64,000 bases of DNA. It comes from a bacterium. Its GTDB lineage: Bacteria; Patescibacteriota; Patescibacteriia; UBA1558; UBA10009. Positions 16,801-53,930 of the stretch are shown one piece after another. The notes beneath the pieces are model-generated. The model worked only from the letters and a program-made list of their open reading frames with translations, ran no database searches and was not told the DNA's origin. Location of the stretch: NCBI GenBank assembly GCA_018672055.1, contig JABHGM010000001.1:72884-136883 (forward strand). Reading direction: 5' to 3'. How positions within the stretch are numbered: position 1 is the stretch's first letter; every line of letters starts with the position of its first letter. The translations under genes and the position numbers were made by a program.

Positions 16801-17055
16801 CTTAAATAAAGTTGTCTTATAATGGTATACAGATATTTTTAAAATTGTACCAAAAGCAATAATTAATAATATTACTACCACCGTCATATTACAAACATCC
16901 CTAACTAATGGCCAACCTATTTGCACTGCTTCTGAACTTAAAAAATTATTGTATTGAAAAATAACAACCAATCGCTCCATAAACCAAGCAAGAAGTGTGG
17001 CAGTGAGACTGATAATCTCCATCAAAAGCCAATTTATCATGTTGAAAAAATCCAT
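13801..17055 (-). CDS. Large polytopic membrane protein (N-terminal ~7 TM, large hydrophilic C-terminal region with (GEKSEK)n repeat)
   Basis: N-terminal 330 aa are dominated by hydrophobic helices. Gly/Ala-rich linker. C-terminal KGEKSEKGKKGEKSEKGEKGEKGEKSEKGEKGEKS low-complexity tract. Immediately downstream of the giant secreted protein gene. Confidence 0.6.
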   Translation of the reverse strand: MDFFNMINWLLMEIISLTATLLAWFMERLVVIFQYNNFLSSEAVQIGWPLVRDVCNMTVVVILLIIAFGTILKISVYHYKTTLFKLIIMAILINFSKTILGFLIDVSQVVMLTFVNGFKGALLINLNSAFGLEHILSMTVNDDGESFEAFGGLLLGLILLIVACFTIAAFFVVLLFRILTLWILVIISPIAFIAYTFPNLQKYWSEFWGHFFKEITIGIVLAFFMWLSLSILSLSITSDSAILNQFSNDPNVIKYGEVSGQDIEYKEGSEEKFSVTVSAISETPKLFTFIVSIALLWMALMFSQKASGAAGTIAGKIGTKLSDIGKGSIKAGLAPITASFKGAGFLAKTVAKRSGKYVERKVLDSATAEGAGIFRKSLMLLTKPGWEGLAKRGDVLLDESRQVASAQAYDFYNKIMTGGKLQTSHATTAESRIAKTKVEDMNVSGLQDVMAKFDLALDMKPSTEKDRVIRGLFAYASKESWIDDLMSIPRIMEDLMEKGSEEEKKYYYLKDIKQKKEDEGFKGEDLEVEISNASIAYDEKREEDLYNETDKEQKWKGLSKEEKDKEFDKLNKVLTGAEQRLIYGHVEIEPPKKKGKFFKEYIIMDHNGDESDAGKDVVYDLEEPAWANGHWEDVGWVRADPETGKQRLLDYTIKDKNGLTEVARERLTEASKRDGPERGQAHMYSARMGDGTNASCDIDESYRRMHELSGNSNEIYKVASATKSRTGNTNVGGSALGAPLSKDESEHTKAHDYKSVSDLRVFLSVLDASMRNGIASYDKSGAQFVSDNSEANRNYAKGAAIEVRQGSKTGFMIVKFDEKEKDKDGKFIRDKDGKSKITGKMIAINAANGAVYDVEKVDSEDGSESRFIVGDKIAKSVKNYGYEKHRMYINGGPGEEDLEDEIRSPKKGKKAKDGKKGEKSEKGKKGEKSEKGEKGEKGEKSEKGEKGEKSANVNQSIQDVINGLDKVAMTLDDFGKQKVTDIKKGVKNNNKEQLVNGSIGLVLESSMVEIGQLKGKDWRASSMARLEFIEILKRQIKKQFRENRSVMNFLMGDLTNSLNDIKDKIKDNNTGKMAIDEFINDKRK
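14205..14345. repeat. Coding 9/18-nt tandem repeat (cacccttct / cagattttt units) encoding a (GEK/SEK)n tract
   Basis: Direct visual periodicity of ttcacccttctcagattttt units inside the 13801..17055 CDS. Confidence 0.7.
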
Positions 17056-17061
17056 ATATTA

Positions 17062-20000: not shown

Positions 20001-23000
20001 CTTTAGAATACCCTGATAAATTACGTATTCTTTCAACACCTTCAGGATTACCATTTAGATCTAAAAAGTTATATGTTTGTTCTGAATAATCTATACTGGT
20101 TTCTAATTTCAGGCAGTTATCCGGATTATTTGGATCAATCTTTGAACATCTGCCAATATCTAAACAAACCGACGTTGTAACTCCAAATTCATCTTGAACT
20201 TCTATCGAAGAAGTACAGAATAAAGTTTCAGAACATTCTCTGTCTTTAGCAACTTGAATAACTGTATTTGAATTACAATATGCTGAGTCAGAAAAATTAG
20301 TTAAACAACTTTCAGGAACTGTAGGCACATTACCATCTAAAGTTTGTTTAGAGCTATGAGAAATACTAGCTACACTTGTATCATTAAATGGTACACATCC
20401 AGATCCTCTGTCTACAATACCATCGTCGCAATATTCTACTGTATTTGCTTTAGTATAGTATGCTTGGCAAGCAATTGAATAAGTACAGCTACTAGAACCA
20501 GCCGGAGCATAACAAACAGTACTATCTTCTACTTTACAATATTCACCTTCAGTATTTGATATATCATCATCTAAGAAGCAAGTCCAATCATTTTCAGTAT
20601 AAGGGCATGGAATAATACCAAAATCATCACCTGGTAAATCTATAGCTTCGCAAACAAAATGATCAACTCCATTAATATTCTTTTGACAGTAAGTTTTCCC
20701 ATTTAAAGTAATATATTCTTCACTAGCTTCATCCCCACAAACACCCTTCATTTGAGGTGAAATTAAAGCATCACATTGCTGAACGCCATCAATATAAGGA
20801 TTCTCTGGATCTCTGTATTCAGTACAAGAAGAAGCGTAACTTTCACATGTGCCAACCCAACCTTCATAGCCTTCTTGATCAGAGCTTGGCATAAATTTAG
20901 ATGAGCTACATAAATCACCGGAAGAATTAAGCCATTTAGCTTGATTTAAATTATAGGTACAAGTTCTGTCAAAACCATCTTCACTTAAAGCTATTGGATC
21001 GAAATAATAATTCTGACCAGTAAAGTCTCCATTAAACTCTGTACAATAAAGAGCGCTCTCGCTACAAAGCTGTCTTGGATATTCATCAGGATCATTAATT
21101 AAATAAGAAGTATTAAAATCAGTAATATAATTTTCTAAATATGTTTCATAATCACCACCACTATAGTATTCGTTCTGTCTGTCTAAAACAGGTACCCCAA
21201 CCAAAGAGCAACCTTTTTCTGAACACTCTTTACTTGGATCATTAACGATGTATACGATTTCATCATTTTTAACTGTTATATTTTCATAACTACATGAAAA
21301 TTCTCCATCTTGAATTATACATTTCTCAACACCTCTTATACTACAAACATTATCTTCAACAATACCAACAGAACTATTACATAAAGCAGTAAAGACTTCT
21401 TCTTTTTGTTGTGAAGAGTTATGTGTATCTATAAATGCTTCACAACTAATATTATTCGGAGAACAAATATAGTCAAAAGATTTTAAATAATGTATCTCGT
21501 TGTCCCTGTCAGTATATTCTTGGCAATTAAGCTGAGTTCCAACAGTTGGTAAGTCACATATTGCTGGTGTATTCCAAGAATCTTTAACCATGAAAAATTT
21601 ATCACTATATTCTTCCAAAACAATTTCATCAATTACATAAGCCTCTCCTGAACCAATATTATTTATAGCAATACGTATAGTTGGATCTTGAATATTATTA
21701 TTTATTTGTATTGGACCTACTCTATATTCCTGCCAGTTAGAACCTATATCATTGAGTTCAAAATTAACATAATTGGAATAATCAGTATTGTCTACTATAT
21801 ATTTTTGCGAATCAAAAGGAATGCTCATAGCCCAGAAAGTAAGTTCATATTGTTTATTTTCAGAAAAGTTAATTCCATTCAATGTCTTAATTATTGAATT
21901 ATTATCAGTAGCAACAAATAATGAATGCTCACCTACATAAACAGTAGTATTTACATTTGAAAGTCCTTGATTACTATTATCAGTATTATTAAAATCTCCA
22001 ATTGAACCATCTTCAAAGCCATCTTCAAAAACATTAAATATATTATTACCACCACCACCTTTATATTCCTTACATTGATTAGCTAGAGCTGGACAACTTA
22101 CACCTTCAAATGGATCAGCATTAAATATCTGACCTGTTGAAGTTCTTCTATATGGATGACACTCTGAAGAAGCAGTAATAACATATCTTTGATCAATATA
22201 ATATGGATCACCTGAAGAAGTAATAAACTCACGGCAATTTAAATTACCTTCAGGACATGAACTTGACCAGGCTTCAATAGTTTCAGCTGTATCATCGCAA
22301 GTTTGATCAAAATTATTAGAATCATCTGATAAGTTTAAATGTGTACAAGGAGCGCCTGCGAATACACCTCCTGTAATATTATTATTTAACAACTGCCATT
22401 TCTTTAATTGAAAACCTGTAGTATCTGAACCTTCCCAAGTAAAATATGAGCTTATATTAGGACTTGCTTCAGATACACATTGTCTTAAGTATGAAAAATA
22501 TTCTAAACCTTCACCACCACTTGAAACCTCATCTAAATTAGTAAATTGTTCACAACCAACATGCTGGGCACTACATGATTTACCAGTTGATGGTATAAAA
22601 TTTTGAAATGATGACTCAAAAGTAGCATCTTCGATCTCTTCAAAATAAGTACCTAGTTCTAAAAAGTTTTCATAACCAACACATTGATTACTACAAATAT
22701 CTCCACTTGATAATTTTGCTGGAACCTCACTACCACCTAAAACCGGTGTATAGCCTTCACAACCAACGTCTGCTTGAGAACAATAATTTACATACTGGTC
22801 ACATTCAGGATTATCTGAGCTACAATCTAAATATTCAGGTTGCACTTTTAGACGGGTTGATGAATGAGCAGTAGTATCACTATATGCTGGAATATATTGA
22901 TCTGAATCAATACTATAACCTTCTGTATTATCCTCTACAATAGGTGATCTGAGTATTACTAATTGTATATCATCTAACTTAGTATTAGATGACGAACCTG

Positions 23001-25467
23001 AATTTAAACTAAAATCTAATTTAATAAACTTTGATGAAACAGCTAAGCTATTATTTGTTGCTGAGCCAATTTCATATTCTTTAGTAGTAAAATCATCTGA
23101 TACAGTAATAGCACCTGATGATAAATCAGTTGAACCATTAGATGAGCCTGGTTGACCACTAGCTAAAGCTACATATTCAGTTATTGATAAAGTAGATGTA
23201 ACTTCTTGATCTGACTTTATCTTGTAACTTACATGATATGCATATTCTGAACTAACTGGTATATAACCAGAATTAAATAATTGACAACTAGCGCCAGATA
23301 TATTCATCTGACCAGCTTCAACATTAAATAGACATTGATTGCCTGTTTCCCAGCCTGAAGATATACCAAAAGCGAAATTACCATTTTCAACTAAATTAAT
23401 ACCTGGCTTTAAAAGAATTAATTCCCGACAACCAGCATTACTTGGTGAGCATTGAGAAGCTTGATTATTTAAATATATACGATCAGTTTTTGACCACTCA
23501 TCTGCTACTTTATTTGTAGAATACCAAGAACATCCGGCCTCGCTCTGATCACATTCAAGTAAAGTATCCCTTAAATATGAAACACTTGTGTTAGTAGTAA
23601 CATTAGTAAAAGTTTCACATGAGTTATAATAATCTTCACATGATTCACCTTCAAATCTCCAAACTGATTTTTCTTCTACACAATAACCATAATTTTTACA
23701 GCTACCATCATCATTGTATGAAATACAACTCTTCCAATCACCACAATAATCCCCAGCTCTTATTACAGTTCTAACTGGAATATCAGGAAATTCTGCACCA
23801 GCATCACAATACGGAGTTTCGATTGGAGAATTATCTATATTAGTACCTACTACATTATTTTCTGAACACTGTATTTCATCTTGATATAGCTCAGTGCCAA
23901 AACCTTGTTTTTCACAATAAGTTTTAGGTGATTTCAAAACCCAATTTGGATCAACTAAATGATAGAATGGATTAAAATCAAAAACAAAAGATTCATCTAA
24001 ATCACCCTCTTCAAATAATCTATCTTCTGTATTAGGCCTCTGCCCATTACTATTTGTATCTTCTCTACAATCTTTTGGATAATGAGCATCATTAGGGTGT
24101 AGCGGATCTTCAAAACAATCAATTAAATAACTTAAATTAATAGTGTCTTTCTCACCGTACCTAGAATTGTACATAGCTGCTAATTCCCAACCAACAGGTA
24201 TTATTCTATGAGTTCTAAGGATTACTAAACTCCTGTATGGCAAACCTTCTCTATAGCTTGGCTGAGTTGTTTTATCACTATTAAAACCAAAGACAGCATC
24301 TTTGTTAATATCACCATCATTTATTGCTTGAATTAATGTCTTATTACCTCTAATTGCTCCAGCCATGCCATTAGTAATTACCTCAGCTGTAGGTCCTGCT
24401 ATATCTGTTATCTTAGGTAAAACTAATTTATCAATAACACTTACCTCACCAGATGTAAAACTTACTTCAGCTAATTCACCAAATTGTTTTTGTCCTCCAC
24501 CGCTATACCTACCCCCAGATCTAACTATAAAATTAGCAAAAGAAGTAACTCTGCTACCACTATCAAAACCTTTCTTAAATAGAGTATCCATCCACTTAGA
24601 CATTAAAGTGTTAGTGAAAGTTGATAAGAAAGCATCAACAATTTCACCAGTATAAGTAAGTTCTACTTCGCCTGTTTTTTCATCAACAGATCTAAAATGA
24701 TTACCTAGTAATACAGCAGGTGTTTTAATAGTTCTAGTTATAGGAGAAGTAATATCTTTTAAACCTTGATTAACAGTTCGTTCTAAAGCAGCATTAACTC
24801 TAGCTTCTTCTTGCTCTTCCAAAATATTTGTTTGTAAAGTTAAATAAATACCTAAATCATTTTGTTCTGGTTGAAACTGCGCTTTAATACCTGAAGTGAA
24901 TTGACTTGGATCTTCACCAACATCTCTAATCCATTGATCCCAATTATCCTTAATCTCTGACCATTTACATCGTGCTTTCGGTATATTAGTTCCTTCACCA
25001 GTTGTGGAACCAGGTCCCAATTCTCTAAATAATGAATAGTGAATATTAAATTTAACAGTAGGTCCTTGTAATCCTGCTGGATTACAAACATCAAAATCAG
25101 TCCAATCCTGAGTTAGCTCATCCATAAATGTGCCAAGAGCAGCATCACCAGCTGCACTGGTAGCATCTTGAAAATTCTTGCCTTCAAATAGAGGTTCTTG
25201 TCCTCTACCACCAGTAGCAATGTATGTTGCAGTATCATAGGCAACCTGACTTAAAAATACTTTAGCACCTTGCTTAAAAGCAGTACCAATAGCTGATTCT
25301 TTAAACCATTCAGCAAATTTTTGGACACTTTCTACAGTTCTTTGAGCAAAAGCAGGAAAATCAGTTACAGCTTGAGCTCTTGGAACATTACTAAAAATAA
25401 AAACTCCTAAAAATAAGATTAAAACACTTAGGAGTATAAATTTTTGAAATAATGTTTTTTTCATCAT
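17062..25467 (-). CDS. Giant (2801 aa) secreted Cys-rich surface protein
   Basis: Signal peptide (MMKKTLFQKFILLSVLILFLGVFIFSNVPRAQA). ~480-aa Cys-poor N-terminal domain, then >2000 aa with frequent paired Cys and Asn/Ser/Thr/Gly-rich segments. Single uninterrupted ORF of 8.4 kb. Confidence 0.7.
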   Translation of the reverse strand: MMKKTLFQKFILLSVLILFLGVFIFSNVPRAQAVTDFPAFAQRTVESVQKFAEWFKESAIGTAFKQGAKVFLSQVAYDTATYIATGGRGQEPLFEGKNFQDATSAAGDAALGTFMDELTQDWTDFDVCNPAGLQGPTVKFNIHYSLFRELGPGSTTGEGTNIPKARCKWSEIKDNWDQWIRDVGEDPSQFTSGIKAQFQPEQNDLGIYLTLQTNILEEQEEARVNAALERTVNQGLKDITSPITRTIKTPAVLLGNHFRSVDEKTGEVELTYTGEIVDAFLSTFTNTLMSKWMDTLFKKGFDSGSRVTSFANFIVRSGGRYSGGGQKQFGELAEVSFTSGEVSVIDKLVLPKITDIAGPTAEVITNGMAGAIRGNKTLIQAINDGDINKDAVFGFNSDKTTQPSYREGLPYRSLVILRTHRIIPVGWELAAMYNSRYGEKDTINLSYLIDCFEDPLHPNDAHYPKDCREDTNSNGQRPNTEDRLFEEGDLDESFVFDFNPFYHLVDPNWVLKSPKTYCEKQGFGTELYQDEIQCSENNVVGTNIDNSPIETPYCDAGAEFPDIPVRTVIRAGDYCGDWKSCISYNDDGSCKNYGYCVEEKSVWRFEGESCEDYYNSCETFTNVTTNTSVSYLRDTLLECDQSEAGCSWYSTNKVADEWSKTDRIYLNNQASQCSPSNAGCRELILLKPGINLVENGNFAFGISSGWETGNQCLFNVEAGQMNISGASCQLFNSGYIPVSSEYAYHVSYKIKSDQEVTSTLSITEYVALASGQPGSSNGSTDLSSGAITVSDDFTTKEYEIGSATNNSLAVSSKFIKLDFSLNSGSSSNTKLDDIQLVILRSPIVEDNTEGYSIDSDQYIPAYSDTTAHSSTRLKVQPEYLDCSSDNPECDQYVNYCSQADVGCEGYTPVLGGSEVPAKLSSGDICSNQCVGYENFLELGTYFEEIEDATFESSFQNFIPSTGKSCSAQHVGCEQFTNLDEVSSGGEGLEYFSYLRQCVSEASPNISSYFTWEGSDTTGFQLKKWQLLNNNITGGVFAGAPCTHLNLSDDSNNFDQTCDDTAETIEAWSSSCPEGNLNCREFITSSGDPYYIDQRYVITASSECHPYRRTSTGQIFNADPFEGVSCPALANQCKEYKGGGGNNIFNVFEDGFEDGSIGDFNNTDNSNQGLSNVNTTVYVGEHSLFVATDNNSIIKTLNGINFSENKQYELTFWAMSIPFDSQKYIVDNTDYSNYVNFELNDIGSNWQEYRVGPIQINNNIQDPTIRIAINNIGSGEAYVIDEIVLEEYSDKFFMVKDSWNTPAICDLPTVGTQLNCQEYTDRDNEIHYLKSFDYICSPNNISCEAFIDTHNSSQQKEEVFTALCNSSVGIVEDNVCSIRGVEKCIIQDGEFSCSYENITVKNDEIVYIVNDPSKECSEKGCSLVGVPVLDRQNEYYSGGDYETYLENYITDFNTSYLINDPDEYPRQLCSESALYCTEFNGDFTGQNYYFDPIALSEDGFDRTCTYNLNQAKWLNSSGDLCSSSKFMPSSDQEGYEGWVGTCESYASSCTEYRDPENPYIDGVQQCDALISPQMKGVCGDEASEEYITLNGKTYCQKNINGVDHFVCEAIDLPGDDFGIIPCPYTENDWTCFLDDDISNTEGEYCKVEDSTVCYAPAGSSSCTYSIACQAYYTKANTVEYCDDGIVDRGSGCVPFNDTSVASISHSSKQTLDGNVPTVPESCLTNFSDSAYCNSNTVIQVAKDRECSETLFCTSSIEVQDEFGVTTSVCLDIGRCSKIDPNNPDNCLKLETSIDYSEQTYNFLDLNGNPEGVERIRNLSGYSKAGLIWNTDKVIAGYYPPELMLETGRSVAISNSSFELIDSVSGLSSWQFGEEEYCNYGIENNNLNVYDGTYSLSVDLSQSVVGEDGNFNCSVVNQSQISIDPNMQYNLSFYAKSSNGSQKIKVGLTWLDGSGDELSNSLEIFTPNVNWQRFLISYEPSESNSEIIIPDGAVAARITIDAPTTEESGGTGLVWFDKFSIEPGLFVSDDKLLTKDCRLYPTDNAPSCNYSDLKQYNGWHGYCLEYDPNNQEACIQWYPVDNISGESLISLGDSATSYYTGPMPLYYCLESTSHYKETIYNGNQCWNWGSNMQCGYDGFEWSTEYIEVSNEEHEWYYPGEDYTSFYTDGDNQEIWNIKRSDIHKIEARTISNGGDKQFPNPGETFTLLEWSDDNSLFFAYCRNSVETDPDKWNNEDGSCDSSGEERVGVKVKFDINGNIEEIEHYGHDDDGDGNNQDTWGYQLIFHLKESCSYLVKTVKDTSESGQKEKAWFTRYNNNWDFDEGNEMGYMKSNMVEDSYLYGSVSEPSAGDPYSWNSIDNPAVPLNIHSGSNSNIPNGSYEPEIFARGGLPFSTYTGHSVSNRECLGGFNEGNTCINSSECEDDSGADLSGICIGVGDYCYNSANISNGQACNASIECFDSKYPTCRKPILATNRMCYTDSTSGVTNNQICATDLDCPQVQEYNTCSEIQSSNNGVLYCLNASGETEYTECADSEDNADNDICTEDGELDYVTCGNLTDTSSFLCTNADGNTNNTSCDIANGNQDCLNQTLYPVCLGEPLELADVLRDRVLNLFAEVYGVYKWEDGHYEDVTDDFDDADGKISVVEEEGVAPQVTNIELNDSSGVITLTAPGGAVNLSFNTIMGNPDQLPIEEILIKWNDGPSPSDIQSFSGPINNRPQESSPHKVKHVYSCVTNTEGDRCSKCWDTNIENWIDADDGICYYSGPTISVKDHWGWCSSGIYGNERCDLGSSPQFNGQIQIIPR

Positions 25468-27717: not shown

Positions 27718-28888
27718 GTAAACTATTTTTAGGAAGTAAATTAACTAATAATGAAGCCATAGCAGCTAAGAAGAAGGCAACATTAATTGAGACAAAATTA
27801 AGCATTATTAATATTAAAATCATAATAATTACTCTGCCAGTTTGTAAATACATTTCACGAAGGGTTGAATACTCATCGACAAAATGACCAGCATCTGCAG
27901 CTTTTTCATACATAAGTGCATCAAAAGGAGTTCTAAGAATTATTAAGGCAAAGTTATGATAAGTAGAGGCTAAAAATATATGAAAAGCTGAGGTAATAAA
28001 TATTTTTACAATCCAGCCAAAAGAATATAATATAGAACCAATTTTCATTAATTTTCTCTTGCTAAATTTATCAGTAAAATCACCCATGACTAGCCTGACA
28101 ACAACAGCAACTAAAGTAACAAGTGAAGCAATAAGACCAACTGATAAATACTCACCATTTAAAAGTTGCCACATAAAGATAGGCCATAAAACAGCTCCAA
28201 CAAAATTCTCTGCTCCATCACCCATATAGGCTATCATCATTTTACGATTATCTTTCTTAAAAAATTCTTTCCAACATTGTTTATGAGACCAAGTAAATTT
28301 TACATTGATTTTTGGTACAAAAAGGAGTGGTATAATACCAACTAATATTAAAATAATTACAATAATAAATACCATTTGAAAACCAAATGATTTAATAAGT
28401 AGAGCAGAAACAAATGGAATAATAATACCAAGTAGTGAAGTAAATGAATCTAGAATACTAATTTGTTTACCTCTATTTTTTTTATCTGATAACTTAGTAA
28501 ATTCAGTATGATATGGTACCCAATAAAGCATCCTGTATACAGTAATAAAAAGAAGAGACAAAACTGTAAATACAACAATATCAGTTTCAAAAAAGTATAA
28601 ACTAGCGAAATAACCAGCTAGAAATGGAAAGGCCCAAATAATAGAATTGCGTATTCCAATATAATTCATAAATATAGCACCAGGAGTAGCTGTAAATATG
28701 TATAAACCAAAAGATATTAAATAATATACAATAACTTTTTCTAAACTTTGATATTGAATTAACAAATAAACTGGTAAAAATAATCCTACAAAACCACCAG
28801 CAATTAGTAATATAGATCGTGAGGTATATAAAGAAGCTAAACCAGGAGGTAATAAATGACCTTTCTTATAATCCTCTATTATTTTCAT
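27695..28888 (-). CDS. Polytopic membrane transporter (MFS-like), hypothetical
   Basis: ~12 hydrophobic segments over 397 aa. No diagnostic motif recognised. Confidence 0.4.
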   Translation of the reverse strand: MKIIEDYKKGHLLPPGLASLYTSRSILLIAGGFVGLFLPVYLLIQYQSLEKVIVYYLISFGLYIFTATPGAIFMNYIGIRNSIIWAFPFLAGYFASLYFFETDIVVFTVLSLLFITVYRMLYWVPYHTEFTKLSDKKNRGKQISILDSFTSLLGIIIPFVSALLIKSFGFQMVFIIVIILILVGIIPLLFVPKINVKFTWSHKQCWKEFFKKDNRKMMIAYMGDGAENFVGAVLWPIFMWQLLNGEYLSVGLIASLVTLVAVVVRLVMGDFTDKFSKRKLMKIGSILYSFGWIVKIFITSAFHIFLASTYHNFALIILRTPFDALMYEKAADAGHFVDEYSTLREMYLQTGRVIIMILILIMLNFVSINVAFFLAAMASLLVNLLPKNSLHEKASIR

Positions 28889-31266
28889 ACTACTAAGTTT
28901 ATTAATTTATTAGGAACATATATAAACTTTTTAATTTCATTACCATCAATAAACTTTTTAATCTTAGGTAAATCTAAAGCTTGTTTTTTAATATCTTTTT
29001 CAGAAATACCTCTATTTACAATAATCGTATCTCTTAACTTACCATTAACTTGGATAGCAATAGTAATTTTATCATCAATAATTAACTTCTCATCATACTT
29101 AGGCCACTTATTATTAAAAATTGTTTCTTTATTACCAATTTCTTCATTTATTTCTTCACATATATGCGGAGCAAAAGGAGCAAGTAATATTAAAAACTTA
29201 TTTAAACTATCCTTAGTTATATTTAACTTAGTAACTGTATTCATAAATTCCATCATTGAAGCAATGGCTGTATTAAAACTTAAATTCTCAATGTCTTCAG
29301 TAACCTTTTTAATAGTTTTATGTAATATCTTAGTAACTTCTTCATCATCTTTATCTGCTTCTTTCAAATTAGTACTATACTTATAAACTTTTTCTAAAAA
29401 TCTTCTAATACCAATAATGCCTCTCTTATTCCAAGGCTTAGAATCTTCTAAAGGTCCCATAAACATTTCATACATTCTCAAAGTATCAGCGCCAAATTCA
29501 TCAACTACATCATCTGGATTAATTACATTACCCCAACGCTTACTCATCTTACGAGAATCTTCAGCAAGTATTAATCCTTGATTTCTTATCTTAGTAAAAG
29601 GTTCATCAAAATTTAAATAGCCTTGATCTCTTAAAAACTTAGTAATAAATCTAGAATAAATTAAATGACCTACTGCATGTTCCATACCACCTATATATAA
29701 ATCAACTGGTAGCCAATACTTTAAACTTTTTTTACTAAAAGGTTCTTTATTATTACTAGCATCACAATATCTTAAAAAATACCAAGAAGAACAAACAAAT
29801 GTATCCATGGTATCTACCTCTCTCTTAGCCTTATCACCACATTTAGGACATTTAACATCGTGAAATGTTTTAGAATCAACTAACGGAGACTGACCAGTTG
29901 GCTTAAAATCAACGTCATCTGGTAATATAACTGGTAAATTCTTTTCGGGAACAGGTACAGTGCCACAGGCATCACAATAAATAATAGGTATAGGTGAACC
30001 CCAATATCTTTGCCTAGAAACTAACCAATCACGTATCTTATATTGTGTCTCTAAATAGCCATCTACCTTATTAGTTATTTTTTTAATAGCTTCACTAGAA
30101 GTTAAGCCATCAAATTTATCACTATTTATTAATATACCATCTCCAGTAAATAATTCTTCTTTATTATCGTCTGACTTAATTACATCAATAATTTCTAAAT
30201 TATATTTCTTGGCAAATTCATAATCGCGCTCATCATGAGCTGGAACTGCCATAATAGCTCCTGTACCATAATTTGTTAATACATAATCTGCAATATATAT
30301 AGGTATTTCTTTGTCATTTGCAGGATTTATAGCAATCAAACCTTTTAATTTAATGCCTGATTTTTCTTTATTCAGATCCGTTCTCTCTAAATTACTTTTT
30401 GATTTAGATTTTTCTATATATTTTTCTACTTCTTTAAAATTTTCTATGTTACCTTTTAACTTATTTACTAATTCATGCTCTGGAGCTAAAACCATATAGG
30501 TTGCCCCAAATAGAGTATCGGGTCTAGTTGTAAAAACTTCAATTTGATCATCGGTTGTTAATACTTTAAATTTAAGTCTAGCGCCTTCTGACTTACCTAT
30601 CCAATTTTTTTGAGTCGTCTTTAAAGCTTGTGACCAATCTAGGCCATCTATCTTTTCTAAAAGCTCTTCAACATATTCTGTTGTTTTAAAAAACCATTGA
30701 TTTAAATCTTTTTGAATAACATCATTTTCGCATCTTTCACATTTACCCTGAACTACTTGTTCATTAGCTAAAACCGTCTTACAAGAATCACACCAATTAA
30801 CAGGTGCTTTCTTTTTATAAGCTAAATCTTTTTCATAAAGCTTAAGAAATAACCATTGAGTCCATTTATAATAATCAGGTGATGAAGTATTTACTTCACG
30901 ACTCCAATCATATGAAAAACCTAAAGATTTAATTTGTCTTTTAAATGTTTTGATATTTTCTTTAGTCTTTTCTCTTGGATGAACGCCTTCTTTAATTGCA
31001 AAGTTTTCAGCAGGTAAACCAAAAGAATCCCAACCCATTGGTTGCAATACATTAAAACCTTGAAACCTATAATACCTACTAGCTATATCAGTAGCTGTAT
31101 AACCTTCTGGATGTCCAACATGAAGACCATCACCTGAAGGATATGGAAACATACCAAGAATATACTTCTTCTTACCTTTGCCATTTTCAACTCGATTAAT
31201 TTCTAGTTGATCCCACTTAGCTTGCCATTTTTTCTCTATTTTTTGATGATTGTAATATGTAGTCAT
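28885..31266 (-). CDS. leuS: Leucyl-tRNA synthetase
   Basis: MFPYPSGDGLHVGHPEGY (HIGH-like) and KMSKRWGN (KMSKS) motifs. Overall LeuRS N-terminal signature WQAKW. Confidence 0.9.
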   Translation of the reverse strand: MTTYYNHQKIEKKWQAKWDQLEINRVENGKGKKKYILGMFPYPSGDGLHVGHPEGYTATDIASRYYRFQGFNVLQPMGWDSFGLPAENFAIKEGVHPREKTKENIKTFKRQIKSLGFSYDWSREVNTSSPDYYKWTQWLFLKLYEKDLAYKKKAPVNWCDSCKTVLANEQVVQGKCERCENDVIQKDLNQWFFKTTEYVEELLEKIDGLDWSQALKTTQKNWIGKSEGARLKFKVLTTDDQIEVFTTRPDTLFGATYMVLAPEHELVNKLKGNIENFKEVEKYIEKSKSKSNLERTDLNKEKSGIKLKGLIAINPANDKEIPIYIADYVLTNYGTGAIMAVPAHDERDYEFAKKYNLEIIDVIKSDDNKEELFTGDGILINSDKFDGLTSSEAIKKITNKVDGYLETQYKIRDWLVSRQRYWGSPIPIIYCDACGTVPVPEKNLPVILPDDVDFKPTGQSPLVDSKTFHDVKCPKCGDKAKREVDTMDTFVCSSWYFLRYCDASNNKEPFSKKSLKYWLPVDLYIGGMEHAVGHLIYSRFITKFLRDQGYLNFDEPFTKIRNQGLILAEDSRKMSKRWGNVINPDDVVDEFGADTLRMYEMFMGPLEDSKPWNKRGIIGIRRFLEKVYKYSTNLKEADKDDEEVTKILHKTIKKVTEDIENLSFNTAIASMMEFMNTVTKLNITKDSLNKFLILLAPFAPHICEEINEEIGNKETIFNNKWPKYDEKLIIDDKITIAIQVNGKLRDTIIVNRGISEKDIKKQALDLPKIKKFIDGNEIKKFIYVPNKLINLVV

Positions 31267-49300: not shown

Positions 49301-49329
49301 TTTAGAATAAGTGGTCAACAAAGAAAAAA

Positions 49330-49362
49330 GAGGTCTTTGTAAGTAAAAAACCTCCTATAATT
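49330..49362 (-). terminator. Terminator after the 49365..49922 gene
   Basis: GAGGT-tttttacttacaaag-ACCTC followed by TTTTTTCTTT on the minus strand. Confidence 0.5.
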
Positions 49363-49364
49363 AT

Positions 49365-49922
49365 TTATGCAACTAAAGATGCATTTTTATTTTTAACAAA
49401 TAAACCATAGATATAATCTCTATAACAATCATCGCTCCTCTCCTTTGGTGGCCTATAAATCAAAATATTGCTTTCATAAGGAAATACCCAGTTTGAACGA
49501 CTTTTTATACAAAAAACTACATAGTCAAGTATTTCAAAATCCTCTATAGCTTGATGAATCTGGCTTAAGAGTTCTATTTTATCATTAAAATATTCAATTT
49601 GTTTAACTTTAGAATGCCTACCTTCCGTTGAAGTCTTTATCCATGTATCACATGACATAGTAGTATTTTTCAAAAAACTGGTATTAAAGATTGACTCCTC
49701 AGCATAGTCAACAATAATATTCGTATACTCATGATGTTGGATTGGCATAATAGCCCATAGCCATGGAAAGTCCTTAATCATGTTATTATATGCTCTTATA
49801 CTCTTACGATCTGTATTCATCTCTGAACTCCGTTCTTTGAGCCCTCCGGGCTCTGATTTGAATGTACATTTGCACCAACTTAGTGCTTTTAGTGCTAAAA
49901 CCATATTTTCAGCATTATCCAT
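49365..49922 (-). CDS. Hypothetical protein (start uncertain; alternative M35 at 49820)
   Basis: 185-aa ORF. A GC-rich hairpin GAGCCCTCCGGGCTC (49839-49853) lies in the annotated N-terminal codons. Confidence 0.4.
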   Translation of the reverse strand: MDNAENMVLALKALSWCKCTFKSEPGGLKERSSEMNTDRKSIRAYNNMIKDFPWLWAIMPIQHHEYTNIIVDYAEESIFNTSFLKNTTMSCDTWIKTSTEGRHSKVKQIEYFNDKIELLSQIHQAIEDFEILDYVVFCIKSRSNWVFPYESNILIYRPPKERSDDCYRDYIYGLFVKNKNASLVA

Positions 49923-49964
49923 AATATACTATATATTATATTATTTATCAATTATGATCTTTAA

Positions 49965-49990
49965 TCAAAAAACTCCTCTTCTCGAGGAGC
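49965..49990 (-). terminator. Terminator after rnc
   Basis: CTCCTC-gagaa-GAGGAG plus TTTTTT on the minus strand. Confidence 0.5.
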
Positions 49991-50013
49991 TATTTTAATT
50001 ACTAATATAAACC

Positions 50014-50706
50014 TTATTCCCAACCTTTGGCTAATAAGCCTTCTTTAGCTGCATCCATTTGAGCTTCTTGCTTAGAAGTACCTTTACCTTCAGCAACTAT
50101 CTCATTTTTAATATATACACCCATTTTAAAATATTTATTATGGTCAGGGCCTGTTTCTTTTAAAACTCTGTAATTTGGCGTAACACTAAATATTTCTTGT
50201 GACTTTTCTTGAAATCTACTTTTTGGATCTAAGTATAGATTATTTTCTAAAATATTTGGTAATTTATCTAAAACGTTATTTGTAATAAACTCTTTAGCCA
50301 TATCATAACCTTGATCTAAATAAATAGCTCCAATAACCGCTTCCATAGCATTAGCTAGAATATAGTTACGAGCTTTAGGATTTACATCTTTAGCTTCACC
50401 TTTACTCATATAAAGATAATCTTCTATTTCTAAAGATTTAGCGATGTCTGCTAAAATTTTAGCATTTACTAAAGCTGCTCTCCAGTTAGTAAGCTCCCCT
50501 TCTGGATTTGGATAATTATTATATAAATAATCTGTTACTATAAGTTCCAAAACAGCGTCACCTAAAAATTCAAGTCTTTCGTTATGATCTAATTTAAAAC
50601 TTTTATGCTCATTTAAATATGATCTATGAACAACTGAAGACTTTAATAAATCTTGGTTCTTAAATTTAACTCCTAATATTTTTTCAAACTTTTTAAAAGT
50701 TTTCAT
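50014..50706 (-). CDS. rnc: Ribonuclease III
   Basis: ERLEFLGDAVLELIVTDYLY catalytic signature. C-terminal dsRBD (KGTSKQEAQMDAAKEGL). Confidence 0.9.
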   Translation of the reverse strand: MKTFKKFEKILGVKFKNQDLLKSSVVHRSYLNEHKSFKLDHNERLEFLGDAVLELIVTDYLYNNYPNPEGELTNWRAALVNAKILADIAKSLEIEDYLYMSKGEAKDVNPKARNYILANAMEAVIGAIYLDQGYDMAKEFITNNVLDKLPNILENNLYLDPKSRFQEKSQEIFSVTPNYRVLKETGPDHNKYFKMGVYIKNEIVAEGKGTSKQEAQMDAAKEGLLAKGWE

Positions 50707-50707: not shown

Positions 50708-51571
50708 TTATTTAAGTTTTAATATTTCTAAAGCTTTAACAAATATTTCTTTAGCATTCTCGTAACCTATTGTTTCAAGTAATTGTTCCATATCTAACCA
50801 CTTAACATCTTGAACTCCTGGCTCATCAGGTATCTTTAAATCTATATCTGTTGTTTCGAATAGATAATAATGAACTGTTTTAGGTACAGCTCTTTTATTA
50901 GGTTCATTTACTTTAATATCAATACTGCCTAAATATCCTTTATTATCTAATTTTTTAACGCCTACTTCTTCGCTTACCTCACGAACAGCTGCTTTTTCTT
51001 GATCTTCATTTTCTTCAATATGTCCTTTAGGAAAAGTCCATTTATCATAGGCATCATAAATCATTACAAACTTATAATCATCACCTTCTTTTCTATAGAC
51101 TACGCCACCAGCACTATATTCACGAACTGGCTCTTTTTCTAATTCTTTCTTCTCGCCTTTTTCTTGCATATCTTTGTAAATGCTACCAAGCACTCCATTA
51201 ATAAACTTCCCAGCAGAAATACCACTATATGTTTTAGCAAGTTCAATTGATTCATTAATTGCTACTTTAGGCGGAATATCTTGAGCGTATTTTAACTCAT
51301 AGATACCTATTCTTAAAACATTTCTATCAACTGGAGTTATTTGATCTAAGGGCCATTCAGGAGCATATTTTATAATAAGAGCATCAATATCTTTAATTTT
51401 ACTTATTAATTCTTCAACTAAGTGATCAGCAAATCCCTGATCATCAAAATCAGGAGCAAATTCACTCTTATTAAATTCTAAAAGTTTTTTTAAATTCTCT
51501 TTTTGTTGGTTAAAATCCCATTGAAAGAGACTTTGTAGAACTAAAGTTCTAGCTAGATGTCTATTGGACAT
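50708..51571 (-). CDS. nusB: NusB antitermination factor fused to a C-terminal Nudix hydrolase
   Basis: aa 1-135 NusB-like (LARTLVLQSLFQWDF ... DRNVLRIGIYEL ... AINESIELAKTYSGISAGKFINGVLG). aa ~150-287 Nudix with intact box GHIEENEDQEKAAVREVSEEVGV. Confidence 0.8.
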   Translation of the reverse strand: MSNRHLARTLVLQSLFQWDFNQQKENLKKLLEFNKSEFAPDFDDQGFADHLVEELISKIKDIDALIIKYAPEWPLDQITPVDRNVLRIGIYELKYAQDIPPKVAINESIELAKTYSGISAGKFINGVLGSIYKDMQEKGEKKELEKEPVREYSAGGVVYRKEGDDYKFVMIYDAYDKWTFPKGHIEENEDQEKAAVREVSEEVGVKKLDNKGYLGSIDIKVNEPNKRAVPKTVHYYLFETTDIDLKIPDEPGVQDVKWLDMEQLLETIGYENAKEIFVKALEILKLK

Positions 51572-51573: not shown

Positions 51574-51774
51574 TTATTTTTTATTTTTATCTAATTTAGT
51601 TTTTTTCTTAACAACTTCTTTACCTTTGTAAAAACCACAATTATCACAAACCATATGTGGCATAACTGGTTTTTCACAATTACTACATTTCATATGATTA
51701 GCTTTATTTAAAGCAAAATGAGAAGCTCTTCTCTTTTTAGATGCTTTAGTTCTTTTCTGTGTAGGTGTTCCCAT
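51574..51774 (-). CDS. rpmF: 50S ribosomal protein L32
   Basis: MGTPTQKRTKASKKRRASH N-terminus and CxxC...CxxC zinc ribbon (CSNCEK...CDNCGFYKG). Confidence 0.8.
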   Translation of the reverse strand: MGTPTQKRTKASKKRRASHFALNKANHMKCSNCEKPVMPHMVCDNCGFYKGKEVVKKKTKLDKNKK

Positions 51775-51807: not shown

Positions 51808-51836
51808 ATCTTACACAATTACTTATTATATGTCAA
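51808..51836 (-). promoter_or_regulatory. Sigma70-like promoter TTGACA-N17-TAAGAT for the rpmF-nusB/nudix-rnc operon
   Basis: Read on the minus strand ~30 nt upstream of rpmF. Confidence 0.45.
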
Positions 51837-51900: not shown

Positions 51901-51928
51901 TTGACAAATATCTAGCATCTGATATACT
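51901..51928 (+). promoter_or_regulatory. Sigma70-like promoter TTGACA-N16-TATACT for the candidate ncRNA
   Basis: Consensus hexamers. No protein-coding ORF downstream on the plus strand. Confidence 0.5.
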
Positions 51929-51935: not shown

Positions 51936-52085
51936 CCCTTAACTGATCTAAGTTTGCTTCTGCGTCCACGACAAGCATGGGGATTATTGCTAGCGCCACT
52001 TATCTGGCTTACGAGTTTACTTGTTTGCTTGATCGGTGCTTACAATAATTTTCTTGGACGCAGTAATAAGCTTAGGTCTTTTTTG
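51936..52085 (+). ncRNA. Candidate ~150-nt structured small RNA (long irregular hairpin; 6S-like or unknown class)
   Basis: Locally GC-enriched. ~23-bp closing helix AUCUAAGUUUGCUUCUGCGUCCA / UGGACGCAGUAAUAAGCUUAGGU, internal helices (CAAGCA/UGCUUG, GCCA/UGGC), 3' U-run. No SRP, tmRNA or RNase P motifs recognised. Confidence 0.35.
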
Positions 52086-53930
52086 TTACTCTAAAATTTC
52101 ATCAGTTGAAGTAGATAATTCTTCAACACCAATTAAACATCTAGCCGGCCAAGCCACATAATGGGAACTAAAACGTTCTTCCTGAATATTACCATCTGGA
52201 TAAGTTACTTTGTAATCAAAGTAGGCATCTGCTCCATTATGAGCACTTTCTGTACAATTAGTTTTCCCTACTTCAAGTTCAGTAGTTTCAATATACTGAA
52301 TAGGTCCAGGTGAGGTAATATTATATATTGTAGGATCAGTTCTTTCAGATACTCTACCATCAGTCGTTCCCCAAAAATCAAAATATAAATCATCACCTTC
52401 AATACGATACTGAATTAAAACATTATTCTCAGTATCGTTTTTAAATTTAAAATCAGGATAAGGATCATAAATAGTAGCATCAGTACCAGCTGGTTCATAG
52501 TATGAAACTCTATATGAATGATTACGTCTAGCAGTAACGGGTAAACCAGAACCTAAAACTGCTCTAAAAACTGTAGTTCCAATCTGGCATAAACCACCAC
52601 CGTATTCTGGAATTGTCTTATTACCTTTAATAACTAATTCTTGTAAATAACCAGTAGCTCCATTTATATCCCCTAAGGCATCAATTAAAGAAAATTCTTC
52701 ACCTGGTGATATTAATAATCCAGAGATACTCTCAGCACCTATCCGTATATTATGTCTCCTATTTCTAGGACTACCTGAAAAATTAGAATGACCAGTACCT
52801 ATTATTTCAGTAATACCCATATCATTAACTTCACCAGTTTCAATTTTAGCTTTAGTTTCAATTACTACAAGATCAATTTCTGATATTTTATTTATTAAAA
52901 AATCTTCTTCTATTTTCTCTAAGCTTCTTAAATTATCTAACTCCAAACCATCTTGACTACCTACAAATTCAACTACCCTGCCATCAACTATTTCAAATTT
53001 AGCATCAAGTGTTGGTTGATATATATTAGGTGCTACATAGGTATCTAAATAATTAAAAGTAGAAGATGCTTTAAAACCATAACCTATTTTATCATCATGC
53101 TTTTTAAAGATTAACCAATCTTTAAAAATAGAATTAGTAATAGCCCAATTATCATCATTATATACAAGCATAAAAGTAGAAGTAGCGATTATTTCTTCCA
53201 AGCCATTTAGTACTTCTTGATTAATATCATTTTCTAAAATTAAGGGTTCATCAATTGCTAAACTTAGATTAATTGTATCTAAACTTAGATTATTAATTCT
53301 TTCAATAGTGCTTGTTAAAATTAAATCATAATCAAAAGTAGTACCTGCTTGTTCAGGTAAAATAGATATTTCAAAAATATCATTTATAACTGGTCTTGCT
53401 TCTTTTTTAGGTTTAGAAAATTGTTTAAAATTATCTTCTAATATATTAAGAAGTTCTTCCTTATTTAATTCATAATTAAGAGAAATATTTTTACCAAAAG
53501 TAAGAGCCCACATTTGTTTAAAGAAGTTAAGATGATAGCCTTCTTCTCTGCCTATTAAATATGCTTCATTTATAGTATCTTCAATATTAAAATTAATTAA
53601 ACTATACGAAGCATCAGGATCAGAAGTAGCAGGTAATGTTGGATAAATAACTATTTCCTGATCTTGATAGTTATATACTAAACCTTGTTTTAAAAACTCA
53701 TCAACTTGTTTTTGAAACTTAGTAATAGCTACTTGTTTATTTAAACCTTTTAATTCTTGATTATTAATAGTAACTCCTTTAAAAAAAGTAAATGAATGTG
53801 CTTTATTATATGTTAAAGCAAACATAATAACTAAAGTAGCTGTAATTAAAAAAATGGTTGCTATATAAAGGAACCATTTCATAATTTGAAAGCCTAGTTT
53901 ATTATTTTCACTTTTTAATATTTTCTGCAT
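52086..53930 (-). CDS. VanW-domain protein (N-terminal TM anchor)
   Basis: GGGLCQIGTTVFRAVLGSGLPVTARRNHSYRVSYY VanW signature. N-terminal hydrophobic anchor. Confidence 0.7.
   Translation of the reverse strand: MQKILKSENNKLGFQIMKWFLYIATIFLITATLVIMFALTYNKAHSFTFFKGVTINNQELKGLNKQVAITKFQKQVDEFLKQGLVYNYQDQEIVIYPTLPATSDPDASYSLINFNIEDTINEAYLIGREEGYHLNFFKQMWALTFGKNISLNYELNKEELLNILEDNFKQFSKPKKEARPVINDIFEISILPEQAGTTFDYDLILTSTIERINNLSLDTINLSLAIDEPLILENDINQEVLNGLEEIIATSTFMLVYNDDNWAITNSIFKDWLIFKKHDDKIGYGFKASSTFNYLDTYVAPNIYQPTLDAKFEIVDGRVVEFVGSQDGLELDNLRSLEKIEEDFLINKISEIDLVVIETKAKIETGEVNDMGITEIIGTGHSNFSGSPRNRRHNIRIGAESISGLLISPGEEFSLIDALGDINGATGYLQELVIKGNKTIPEYGGGLCQIGTTVFRAVLGSGLPVTARRNHSYRVSYYEPAGTDATIYDPYPDFKFKNDTENNVLIQYRIEGDDLYFDFWGTTDGRVSERTDPTIYNITSPGPIQYIETTELEVGKTNCTESAHNGADAYFDYKVTYPDGNIQEERFSSHYVAWPARCLIGVEELSTSTDEILE

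Follow-up and report, generated by a model that had tools for sequence, protein, structure and literature searches.

The 64,000-nt stretch of DNA analysed here (hereafter 'the window'), from a CPR bacterium with a small genome, carries a gene in which a bona fide, orthologous nusB is followed in the same reading frame by a complete C-terminal Nudix domain of the Aq_158/NUDT2 type, as profile searches and structure matches show. In a large part of the Patescibacteria, NusB usually takes this fused form. Our main reading, to which we give a probability of roughly 40%, is that the orthologous NusB tethers the Nudix domain to the antitermination complex, where it would act on the 5' ends of nascent RNA, and that in the Paceibacteria the domain would often be a binding or structural module. 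The fusion gene and its parts are:

50708..51571 (-): nusB::nudix fusion gene, 287 codons plus stop codon, a single uninterrupted ORF encoding 287 aa
51158..51571 (-): NusB domain, aa 1-138, six helices (PF01029, structure match)
51122..51157 (-): linker, aa 139-150, GEKKELEKEPVR (14 aa between HMM ends)
50711..51121 (-): Nudix domain, aa 151-287, of the Aq_158/NUDT2 (Ap4A-hydrolase) type (PF00293, PDB matches)
50957..51025 (-): Nudix box, aa 183-205, GHIEENEDQEKAAVREVSEEVGV (read from the sequence)

Both halves are readily recognized by profile searches. The Pfam NusB domain (PF01029) covers aa 7-133 (E=2.7e-35, 122.1 bits against a cutoff of 23.1) and the NUDIX domain (PF00293) covers aa 153-275 (E=6.8e-19), while the NCBIfam nusB equivalog model (TIGR01951) scores 128.5 bits against a cutoff of 88.35. 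The Nudix box, G183-H-I-E-E-N-E189-x7-R197-E198-V-S-E201-E202-V-G204-V205, is an exact GX5EX7REUXEEXGU. An AF2 model of the fusion protein (mean pLDDT 90.5, pTM 0.67) predicts an all-alpha NusB half with helices across aa 2-138 (pLDDT > 90), a linker at pLDDT ~75, and a second half whose secondary structure fits the alpha/beta/alpha Nudix fold. In Foldseek, Thermotoga maritima NusB (1tzv) was matched with TMt 0.85 and an rmsd of 1.5 A, and the search against the PDB gave 580 matches at E<=0.001, the top ones all Nudix enzymes. The original prediction of a NusB-Nudix fusion in one uninterrupted 287-aa ORF is thus borne out; it had placed the domain boundaries correctly and had rightly described the Nudix box as perfect, and the HMM check that it proposed, for PF01029 and PF00293, matched both domains.

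That the fusion is an artefact, with two separate genes joined through an error in sequencing or assembly or through an overlooked stop codon, is hardly conceivable. In the assembly collection, 142 blocks index the exact 287-aa protein, which was found on all 24 of the contigs that we read, and the same architecture occurs in > 180 full-length homologues from different assemblies. In addition, an alignment of 27 sequences of the window clade (A1; 287 aa, 55% identity) has essentially no indels. A frameshift or stop between the halves, which the original prediction had named as its undoing, was not seen in the identical ORF on these many independent contigs.

The fusion has a wide distribution. 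Among the 80 best-matching GTDB loci it was present at 69, all apparently from Patescibacteria and all in the same rpmF-nusB-rnc slot, with Nudix identities to the window protein of ~25-50%; the other 11 loci carried a plain, unfused nusB in that slot, and a split pair of nusB and nudix genes was found at none of the 80. The rnc gene lay directly downstream of nusB at 77 of these loci, and an L32 gene was detected directly upstream in most of them. At the protein level, the NusB domain is 62-68% identical to unfused NusB proteins, and the best 120 database homologues all have both Pfam domains (55-100% identity, ~287 aa). The linker measures 17-37 aa in the other 65 fusions. The original claim that this is not a standard architecture therefore holds against textbook bacteria, but not within the Patescibacteria, where the fusion is common. 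It had also been asked whether the fusion might prove common and already annotated: common it is, and public databases already contain fusion proteins with both Pfam domains, but they are named simply NusB, and our literature searches, which covered part of the journal literature, found no paper on a NusB-Nudix fusion.

Whether the fusion arose once or several times is ambiguous from reciprocal HMM scoring. With an HMM of the Paceibacteria-type Nudix domains, the window-clade domains outscore most stand-alone proteins, whereas with an HMM of the window clade the stand-alone proteins outscore the Paceibacteria-type domains. A neighbour-joining tree of 219 Nudix domains is unreliable, as its distances were saturated, numerical warnings were issued, and it contained no supported clades.

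The fusion gene sits in a compact operon, whose remaining elements are:

51574..51774 (-): rpmF (ribosomal protein L32), first gene of the operon (PF01783 and TIGR01031)
50014..50706 (-): rnc (RNase III), last gene of the operon (TIGR02191, 233 bits against a cutoff of 166)
49961..49991 (-): intrinsic terminator-like hairpin and T-run 3' of rnc, AGCTCCTC-GAGAA-GAGGAGTT then TTTTGATTAA
51808..51836 (-): candidate sigma-70-type promoter, TTGACA-17-TAAGAT (10/12 positions match)

The stop codon of rpmF lies 2 nt ahead of the nusB ATG, and the rnc ATG 1 nt past the stop codon of the fusion. A terminator scan called a hairpin with T-run at 49991..49971 (-), in a region with six terminator-like sites against 0.8 expected. 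An rpmF-nusB::nudix-rnc operon with a terminator had been predicted, correctly, and the terminator is a clear one. The promoter predicted at 51808-51836 fared less well: the candidate is present and aligns with the TTGACA-17-TATGAT of a relative (L002), but the region is AT-rich and holds 18 promoter-like sites against 16 +/- 3.8 in shuffles, so that the candidate is statistically indistinguishable from background and is only plausible. An Rfam search of the operon region returned nothing meaningful. The linkage to rnc and rpmF had further been taken as a sign of coupled RNA processing. This argument fails, since sister lineages with an unfused nusB share the gene order; given the 11 relatives with a plain nusB in the same slot, the operon context belongs to NusB and not to the Nudix domain.

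Near this operon, a conserved, structured small-RNA candidate lies at 51960..52063 (+). As conservation was seen at the RNA level only, we dismissed a 46-aa hydrophobic ORF at 51954..52094 (+) as a genuine gene.

What type of enzyme is the Nudix domain? Both its sequence and its modelled structure place it closest to Ap4A hydrolases, and not to RppH. The best PDB match by phmmer was 3i7u (8e-15), followed by 3u53 (6e-11) and 1kt9 (2e-10), and Foldseek aligned 3i7u with TMt 0.90, an rmsd of 2.0 A and 36% identity. Sequence and structure together gave as best matches Aquifex Aq_158, NUDT2 of C. elegans and human, Chlamydia CT771, mycobacterial MutT1/Rv2985 and Thermus Ndx1. Foldseek ranks 1-32 were dominated by Ap4A/ApnA hydrolases plus MutT1, RppH was absent from the top 50 structural matches, and the search also returned non-catalytic, sensor-type Nudix domains such as NrtR. 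The sequence accordingly does not bear out the original assignment to an RNA 5'-end pyrophosphohydrolase/decapping type: the best matches are Ap4A/diadenosine-polyphosphate hydrolases, and the five RppH models (NF001936, NF001938, NF001937, NF001934, NF001935) reached only 21-33 bits against cutoffs of 116-259, as the YtkD model TIGR02705 reached only 23 against 154. The domain also has stand-alone relatives of 140-165 aa that are 35-47% identical to it and have the motifs EFSAGG...WxFPKGH...Y.N.KEI in common with it. The canonical Nudix box is present in 110 of 122 of these proteins, and against an HMM built from them the window domain is the top-scoring non-solo sequence; cluster look-ups yielded no annotation for most of them.

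At one position the window clade departs from these relatives. A base-stacking tyrosine ~16-18 residues past the Nudix box, such as Tyr87 of NUDT2, reportedly marks the Ap4A hydrolases (Dunn et al. 1999). The window protein has V221-N222-E223 at +16 to +18, and the NUDT2 'elnY', whose tyrosine is Tyr87, aligns with window 'nepn', so this marker is lacking. More broadly, columns 219-221 hold Y, W or F in the stand-alone relatives, in Aq_158 and in the Paceibacteria type, and (I/V)-K-V in the window clade, as part of an (I/V)-K-V-x-x-P motif in which V221 and P224 are invariant and K220 nearly so. As the window clade has no base-stacking aromatic, its specificity may differ from that of every characterized relative.

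The two branches of the fusion differ in the state of their catalytic residues. In alignment A1, G183, E189, R197, E198, E201 and E202 never vary and G204 does so only once (G204N). The linker is conserved both in its length and in its sequence, E140 and K141 being invariant, and 117 of 120 close homologues retain the Nudix-box motif. This pattern, as judged from the aligned proteins, shows strong purifying selection within the window clade, on catalytic residues as well as on the linker and on total protein length, and it supports the earlier prediction of a catalytically competent domain. In the Paceibacteria-type fusions, on the other hand, the domain is still present but its canonical catalytic signature is degenerate in 46 of 63: the GEREEEG signature is intact in only 17, and the metal-binding EE pair contains K, Q, H or D in 18. 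The degenerate domains nevertheless remain above the Pfam NUDIX cutoff, and D173, W178, T179, K182, K231, V233, W258 and Y270 are conserved at >=95% in canonical and degenerate members alike. Such frequent loss suggests that catalysis is not the sole reason for which the domain is retained in the Paceibacteria, and the persistence of a domain whose catalytic residues have decayed suggests that it serves there in binding or as a structural element.

How might such a protein work? The NusB half, which has F16 at the position of E. coli Y18 and conserves KFxNGVL, is predicted to bind S10/NusE and boxA. It would play its usual role, pairing with S10/NusE on a boxA-like element of the nascent (r)RNA, and, being bound to nascent RNA, would move along with RNA polymerase. 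The 14-aa tether would keep the Nudix half beside the emerging transcript, where it might cut a nucleoside-5'-oligophosphate bond, be it in the 5'-triphosphate of the leader RNA, in an Np4-type cap or in the NpnN dinucleotides that would prime such caps. The leader, left 5'-monophosphorylated, would then become degradable once RNase III had excised the rRNA precursors. Across the large branch of the Paceibacteria, the domain, often without its catalytic residues, would probably be a binding or structural module. The window itself contains no rRNA gene or operon, and E. coli-type boxA is not enriched in it (12 matches against 13.4 expected).

A role for the Nudix half at RNA 5' ends is possible by analogy, since NUDT2, a member of the same subfamily, converts PPP-RNA into P-RNA (PMC8616924). 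Moreover, bacterial Np4 caps exist and are removed by the Nudix enzyme RppH and by ApaH, and RppH also hydrolyses ApnA (PMC7044304, PMC8833179). Counting against such a role are the failure of the RppH models, the acidity of the fused domains, the missing aromatic of the window clade, the unrelated fusion partners that this Nudix type has elsewhere, and the degenerate signatures of the Paceibacteria type. A more specific version, in which NusB::Nudix would be an elongation-factor-borne decapping enzyme or pyrophosphohydrolase that travels on the antitermination complex and marks or cleans the 5' ends of nascent rRNA leaders during transcription, and in the Paceibacteria would have turned into a non-catalytic reader of the 5'-polyphosphate end or of a nucleotide signal, strikes us as improbable. 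If true, it would be the first bacterial 5'-end chemistry to be physically coupled to the elongation complex.

While the fusion could place an enzyme on the transcript, it could also reflect simple housekeeping: an ordinary Ap4A/NpnN hydrolase, or a sanitiser of oxidised NTPs, that works on free nucleotides and was fused in a streamlined genome, with the coupling amounting to co-expression with growth-rate-controlled ribosome genes. The closest relatives of the domain, stand-alone Aq_158-type enzymes that mostly keep the canonical box, and its top non-solo score against their HMM are consistent with this, as is the acidity of the fused domains (pI ~4.8-5.3), which have no obvious basic RNA-binding surface. 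Elsewhere, domains of this Nudix type are promiscuous, being joined to shikimate kinase, to PDZ, to a second Nudix domain and, as an insertion, to LeuRS, so that fusion alone is no proof of functional coupling. However, fission is seen in none of the 69 fused loci despite their spread in Nudix identity, the linker is conserved within the window clade, and the Paceibacteria-type domains have lost catalytic residues while keeping non-catalytic ones at >=95%, which is unexpected for a housekeeping hydrolase. We consider this explanation somewhat unlikely.

Alternatively, the Nudix domain could be kept mainly as a binding surface in the CPR antitermination complex, with a 5'-polyphosphate end or a nucleotide signal as its ligand, or else a partner protein, and with hydrolysis secondary in the window clade. 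The altered EE pairs and the scarcity of intact signatures in the Paceibacteria type, the eight residues from D173 to Y270 that persist outside the signature, the fold that still passes the Pfam cutoff and the NrtR-like sensor domains among the structure matches would all fit such a module. There is also a precedent in SuhB, a subunit of rrnTAC, where inositol-monophosphatase activity does not account for the poor growth of suhB mutants (PMC4807359, PMC6614797). Yet every catalytic residue is invariant in the window clade, which argues that hydrolysis matters there, and we consider this reading unlikely. The tethered Nudix domain acting at nascent 5' ends, with a frequent shift to binding in the Paceibacteria, is the reading that we carry forward.

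Few bacterial transcription factors have been studied as thoroughly as NusB, which is seen as a small RNA-binding adaptor with a single domain, and the Patescibacteria make up a major fraction of bacterial diversity. That a large part of them has a two-domain NusB suggests that an additional activity or subunit-like module, unknown in model organisms, is part of their machinery for rRNA transcription and antitermination. The fusion would connect the Nus factors with the metabolism of RNA 5' ends or of dinucleoside polyphosphates, in which Np4 caps, once discovered, have renewed interest, and the pairing of a clade with intact sites and a sister clade with decaying ones offers a natural experiment on the transition from enzyme to pseudoenzyme in a core transcription factor. 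In databases, the name 'transcription antitermination factor NusB' conceals half of the protein.

Comparison with known systems helps to place the fusion. Window aa 1-138 can be aligned over their full length with canonical NusB (E. coli, T. maritima, A. aeolicus) and share with it the KF(V/I)NGVL core motif, with E. coli Y18 corresponding to window F16; in contrast, canonical NusB is a stand-alone protein of ~140 aa, to which the window protein adds a 137-aa enzyme domain. The genomic context also differs, being ribE-nusB-thiL in E. coli and rpmF-nusB-rnc in the window. The Nudix half has in common with the Aq_158/NUDT2 type (3i7u, 3u53, 1ktg, 4mpo, 1vc8 and the N-domain of MutT1/Rv2985) the EFSAGG N-terminal strand, WxFPKGH, the Nudix box, the PK(T)V strand and the C-terminal Y.N.KEIF.KAL helix. 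Those enzymes stand alone, however, apart from MutT1, which is fused to a histidine-phosphatase domain, and the H-Y-W-Y strand of Aq_158 is aromatic where the window clade has no aromatic at the aligned position. RppH belongs to the same Nudix superfamily and fits the original hypothesis in concept, but the window domain is acidic and fails the RppH models.

Three further systems resemble the fusion in architecture or in setting. Dcp2, like the window protein, has a helical N-terminal regulatory domain followed by a Nudix domain, and Foldseek aligns ~250 columns of the two; but the rmsd is 12-15 A at ~14% identity and the helical domains are unrelated, which makes this an architectural analogy only. 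SuhB, an enzyme fold inside a Nus-factor complex, is a functional analogy for the degenerate Paceibacteria-type fusions, although it is a separate polypeptide with an unrelated inositol monophosphatase fold and is not known from CPR bacteria. Finally, RsmB/Sun, which carries a NusB-like N-terminal domain on an rRNA methyltransferase, provides a precedent for a NusB fold that serves as the RNA-binding part of an RNA-directed enzyme within one polypeptide. The window protein lacks its SAM-dependent m5C methyltransferase domain, having the Nudix domain at the C-terminus instead, and RsmB models match aa 7-152 weakly and far under their cutoffs, whereas TIGR01951 scores above its own, which shows that the NusB of the window is a true orthologue rather than an RsmB-type paralogue.

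The nusB::nudix gene of this Patescibacteriota genome encodes a two-domain protein and is co-transcribed with the genes for L32 and RNase III. The operon comprises the following features.

50708..51571, minus strand: nusB::nudix fusion, a single open reading frame of 287 codons
51574..51774: rpmF (L32), upstream, its stop codon 2 nt ahead of the nusB ATG
50014..50706: rnc (RNase III), downstream, its ATG 1 nt past the fusion stop codon
49991..49971: strong terminator-like hairpin with a T-run, after rnc
51836..51808: candidate promoter, TTGACA-17-TAAGAT

The 287-aa product is a member of both the NusB family and the Nudix superfamily, with Pfam matches to NusB (PF01029, aa 7-133, E = 2.7e-35) and NUDIX (PF00293, aa 153-275, E = 6.8e-19) and a score of 128.5 bits against the NCBIfam NusB equivalog TIGR01951 (trusted cutoff 88.35). 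As originally predicted, the reading frame is uninterrupted and its Nudix box (G183-HIEEN-E189-DQEKAAV-R197-E198-V-S-E201-E202-V-G204-V205) matches GX5EX7REUXEEXGU exactly. No second NusB or Nudix gene was found in the 64-kb window, whose G+C content is 29.8%.

The chance that the fusion is an artefact is negligible. A public assembly collection lists the exact protein in 142 blocks, on contigs reaching ~1 Mb, and all 24 contigs that were read contain it; the 120 best homologues in the database, which range from 100% to 55% identity and almost all measure 284-303 aa, each have both Pfam domains. The full G-x5-E-x7-RE-xx-EE-x-G motif is found in 117 of these, the three others including a truncated fragment and one checked full-length protein that deviates at the final G only. 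An alignment of 27 sequences (A1) is free of internal indels bar one single-residue gap, with G183, E189, R197, E198, E201 and E202 invariant, G204 nearly so (one G204N), and the linker residues E140, K141 and E151 also invariant. The AlphaFold2 model built from A1 has a mean pLDDT of 90.5 and a pTM of 0.67, and Foldseek superposes its NusB half on Thermotoga maritima NusB (TMt 0.85, rmsd 1.5 Å). The gene encodes a genuine NusB orthologue that continues, in the same polypeptide, into an intact Aq_158/NUDT2-like Nudix domain, and purifying selection acts on its whole length.

The gaps of 2 nt and 1 nt and the hairpin after rnc bear out the predicted gene order, and the fusion is probably translationally coupled to the L32 and RNase III genes. 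Terminator-like sites are enriched in the region (six observed, 0.8 expected). The predicted promoter at 51808-51836 does exist and aligns with TTGACA-17-TATGAT in one relative, but it is merely plausible because promoter-like hexamers are about equally common in shuffled sequence (18 in the region, 16 in shuffles). Directly past the operon terminator lies a 185-aa ORF (49365-49922, minus strand) lacking a Pfam match, with its own promoter-like site (49951..49923) and terminator-like hairpin (49356..49328). This ORF is among the called genes of L082, an identical contig. Elsewhere in the window, two very large adjacent ORFs with hydrophobic N-termini occupy 13801-25467 on the minus strand (2801 aa, 17062..25467; 1084 aa, 13801..17055).

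Upstream of the operon, and only in the window's clade (also L001-L004, L083, L138 and L178 among the related loci fetched), is a gene for a VanW-like/PG_binding_4 protein (52086-53930, minus strand). In relatives a bidirectional terminator and a small-RNA candidate separate the two; the window lacks that terminator hairpin. The candidate and its putative promoter are located as follows.

51960..52063, plus strand: structured element of ~105 nt between the VanW-like gene and rpmF, opposite in strand to the operon
51901..51928, plus strand: conserved promoter-like site, TTGACA-16-TGnTAnnnT, aimed into the element

We found nine distinct copies, in the window, L001-L004 (approximately L001:1800-1890, L002:3350-3440, L003:3540-3630 and L004:3530-3620) and four metagenome contigs (L083, L114, L138, L178), all nine between the VanW-like gene and rpmF and far better conserved than their flanks. 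Each folds as one long hairpin whose 10-nt internal loop (CGACAAGCAU) is invariant and whose apex, in short versions, is a UNCG tetraloop. Of the 27 pairs, 8 show compensatory changes, and five conserved G.U pairs fix the strand. It has no Rfam match. The element appears to be a small RNA of the window's clade, as yet undescribed, a candidate for divergent transcription from the operon and tied to NusB-Nudix by adjacency alone.

To survey the fusion's spread we searched GTDB, at one genome per species, for peptide patterns taken from NusB, a choice that introduces no bias as to the Nudix part. This yielded at least 586 confirmed relatives; the best 80 loci were fetched, and HMMs made from proteins of the window were run on all their ORFs. 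Sixty-nine of these 80 loci carry the fusion and 11 a plain NusB. Fusion hosts include Parcubacteria/Paceibacteria groups (Nomura-, Giovannoni-, Niyogi-, Lloyd-, Vogel-, Yonath- and Ryanbacteria) and Komeilibacteria; unfused genes occur in Uhr-, Kerfeld- and Buchananbacteria and unnamed Patescibacteria. The original prediction's view of a non-standard architecture applies to textbook bacteria alone: with 69 of the best 80 loci fused, as are the 120 best database homologues, it is standard in a large part of the phylum. Nor do the neighbours signal a coupled RNA-processing role, since the rpmF-nusB-rnc order is kept in essentially all 80 loci, fused or unfused; it makes the fused gene the positional orthologue of nusB, and is a property of nusB in the phylum, uninformative about the Nudix domain in particular. 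Databases name these proteins 'transcription antitermination factor NusB' and nothing more, and our full-text literature searches returned no mention of the fusion, which is thus common in databases yet without a description or study that we found. Transcription specialists would be surprised to learn that across much of the CPR 'NusB' has two domains and bears an enzyme. Several TPA assemblies tagged 'uncultured Gammaproteobacteria' or 'uncultured Candidatus Saccharibacteria' also carry the CPR-type operon (L003, L060, L062, L074 and many of L009-L068); these tags look unreliable because the encoded proteins share 56-67% identity with Komeilibacteria-like or Parcubacteria proteins.

As for the kind of Nudix domain, the predicted RNA pyrophosphohydrolase/decapping (RppH) type is contradicted by the tests available: RppH equivalog HMMs scored 21-33 bits against cutoffs of 116-259, and RppH was absent from the top 50 Foldseek matches. 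The best PDB sequence match is the Aquifex aeolicus Ap4A hydrolase Aq_158 (3i7u, 8e-15), followed by human NUDT2 (3u53, 6e-11), the C. elegans Ap4A hydrolase and Chlamydia CT771, then Thermus Ndx1 (an Ap6A hydrolase) and mycobacterial MutT1/Rv2985; Foldseek on the model gave the same ranking (3i7u: TMt 0.90, rmsd 2.0 Å, 36% identity). In an exhaustive HMMER search the Nudix half by itself matched 8137 cluster representatives at E<=1e-3, the best including many stand-alone proteins (140-165 aa, 35-47% identity) that begin M-x-EFSAGG and have in common with Aq_158 the motifs WxFPKGH, PK(T)V and, at the C-terminus, Y.N.KEI..A, so that the fused domain belongs to a normally stand-alone Aq_158-like family. 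Ap4A hydrolases carry a base-stacking aromatic ~16-18 residues past the box, such as NUDT2 Tyr87. Aq_158 reads H-Y-W-Y there, and the window clade (I/V)-K220-V221-x-x-P224. Because alignments show this aromatic to be absent at that position in the window clade, we file the domain as 'Ap4A-hydrolase-like' rather than as a proven Ap4A hydrolase, a partial fit to the subfamily.

The same Nudix type occurs in other architectures (homologues P0161/P0276, P0247, P0140, P0171 and P0123), including tandem Nudix-Nudix proteins, one annotated in Candidatus Saccharibacteria, a shikimate kinase-Nudix protein (Clostridiaceae) and Nudix-PDZ proteins of ~460 aa. A stand-alone close relative (P0133, 145 aa) directly follows NYN/YacP-type ribonuclease and pseudouridine synthase genes (L081:5323-6438), in an RNA-related block that also holds RelA/SpoT, HisRS and a SpoU methylase. 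Just upstream of the rpmF-nusB::nudix-rnc operon in one CPR MAG, a 974-aa leucyl-tRNA synthetase (L037:751-3672, plus strand) has a NUDIX insert (aa 383-498, 46 bits, canonical box) after its editing domain. Ap4A classically comes from aminoacyl-tRNA synthetases, and the insert may point to Ap4A metabolism; the window's LeuRS (28885..31266, 793 aa) lacks it.

The two fusion branches differ in their catalytic signature, read off the alignment at G183, E189, R197, E198, E201, E202 and G204. The canonical GEREEEG is present in all seven window-clade loci (the window and L001-L006) and 110 of 122 stand-alone relatives, in contrast to only 17 of 63 Paceibacteria-type fusions (L007-L059, L061, L063, L064, L066-L069, L071, L076, L077). 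The other 46 are degenerate (e.g. REIKEKTGL, RSIKEKLGL, KKIKEEIGL): E198 is frequently replaced by K, V, S, A or I, and the E201/E202 pair contains K, Q, H or D in 18 of the 63. Two PDB matches altered at these positions, NUDT2 E58A (4ijx) and Thermus Ndx1 E50Q (1vc9), are what we take to be catalytically inactive mutants. These fusions still pass the Pfam NUDIX cutoff (35.8-58.7 bits; cutoff 21.1), and the residues conserved in >=95% of them (D173, F175, W178, T179, K182, Y219, K231, V233, W258, Y270) are the same in canonical and degenerate members. Linkers are 14 aa in the window and L001-L004, longer in L005 and L006, and 17-37 aa (mode 28-30) in the Paceibacteria type, with the start GE(K/P)xK common to both clades; NusB and Nudix distances correlate across the family (r = 0.77). 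The decay of the catalytic signature while other residues stay suggests that the domain is kept, in this branch at least, for more than hydrolysis; the pattern looks like an enzyme-to-pseudoenzyme transition towards a binding or structural module, and the contrast offers a neat handle.

We predict that the protein works as NusB plus an Ap4A-hydrolase-type Nudix enzyme. The reading we favour, at a probability of roughly 0.4 and with its RNA-processing specifics speculative, is that the tethered domain acts on a 5'-oligophosphate near nascent rRNA. The NusB half would bind S10 and a boxA-like element and ride with RNA polymerase; the Nudix half would hydrolyse a nearby nucleoside-5'-oligophosphate linkage, be it on the leader (its 5'-PPP or Np4-cap) or in an NpnN able to prime such caps; and the leader with its boxA, once RNase III had released it, would be left 5'-monophosphorylated and degradable. 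Supporting this, PPP-RNA is turned into P-RNA by NUDT2, which belongs to the nearest subfamily (PMC8616924), and Np4 caps occur in bacteria, where RppH and ApaH remove them (PMC7044304, PMC8833179). Counting against it are the acidity of the fused domain (pI ~4.8), the promiscuous fusing of this Nudix type and the decay of catalytic residues in the sister clade.

A housekeeping hydrolase of NpnN or oxidised NTPs, fused for economy, is a possible but less probable account. An architectural or sensory role within the antitermination complex, comparable to that of SuhB, seems doubtful for the window clade, with its seven intact signatures, and likelier for the Paceibacteria type.

Among known systems, Dcp2 likewise combines a helical and a Nudix domain, and its Foldseek alignment with the fusion spans ~250 columns, but at an rmsd of 12-15 Å. 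Other architectural analogies are RsmB, in which a NusB-like domain is joined to an rRNA methyltransferase, and SuhB, an enzyme fold within the rrnTAC that matters there for something other than its inositol-monophosphatase activity (PMC4807359, PMC6614797).
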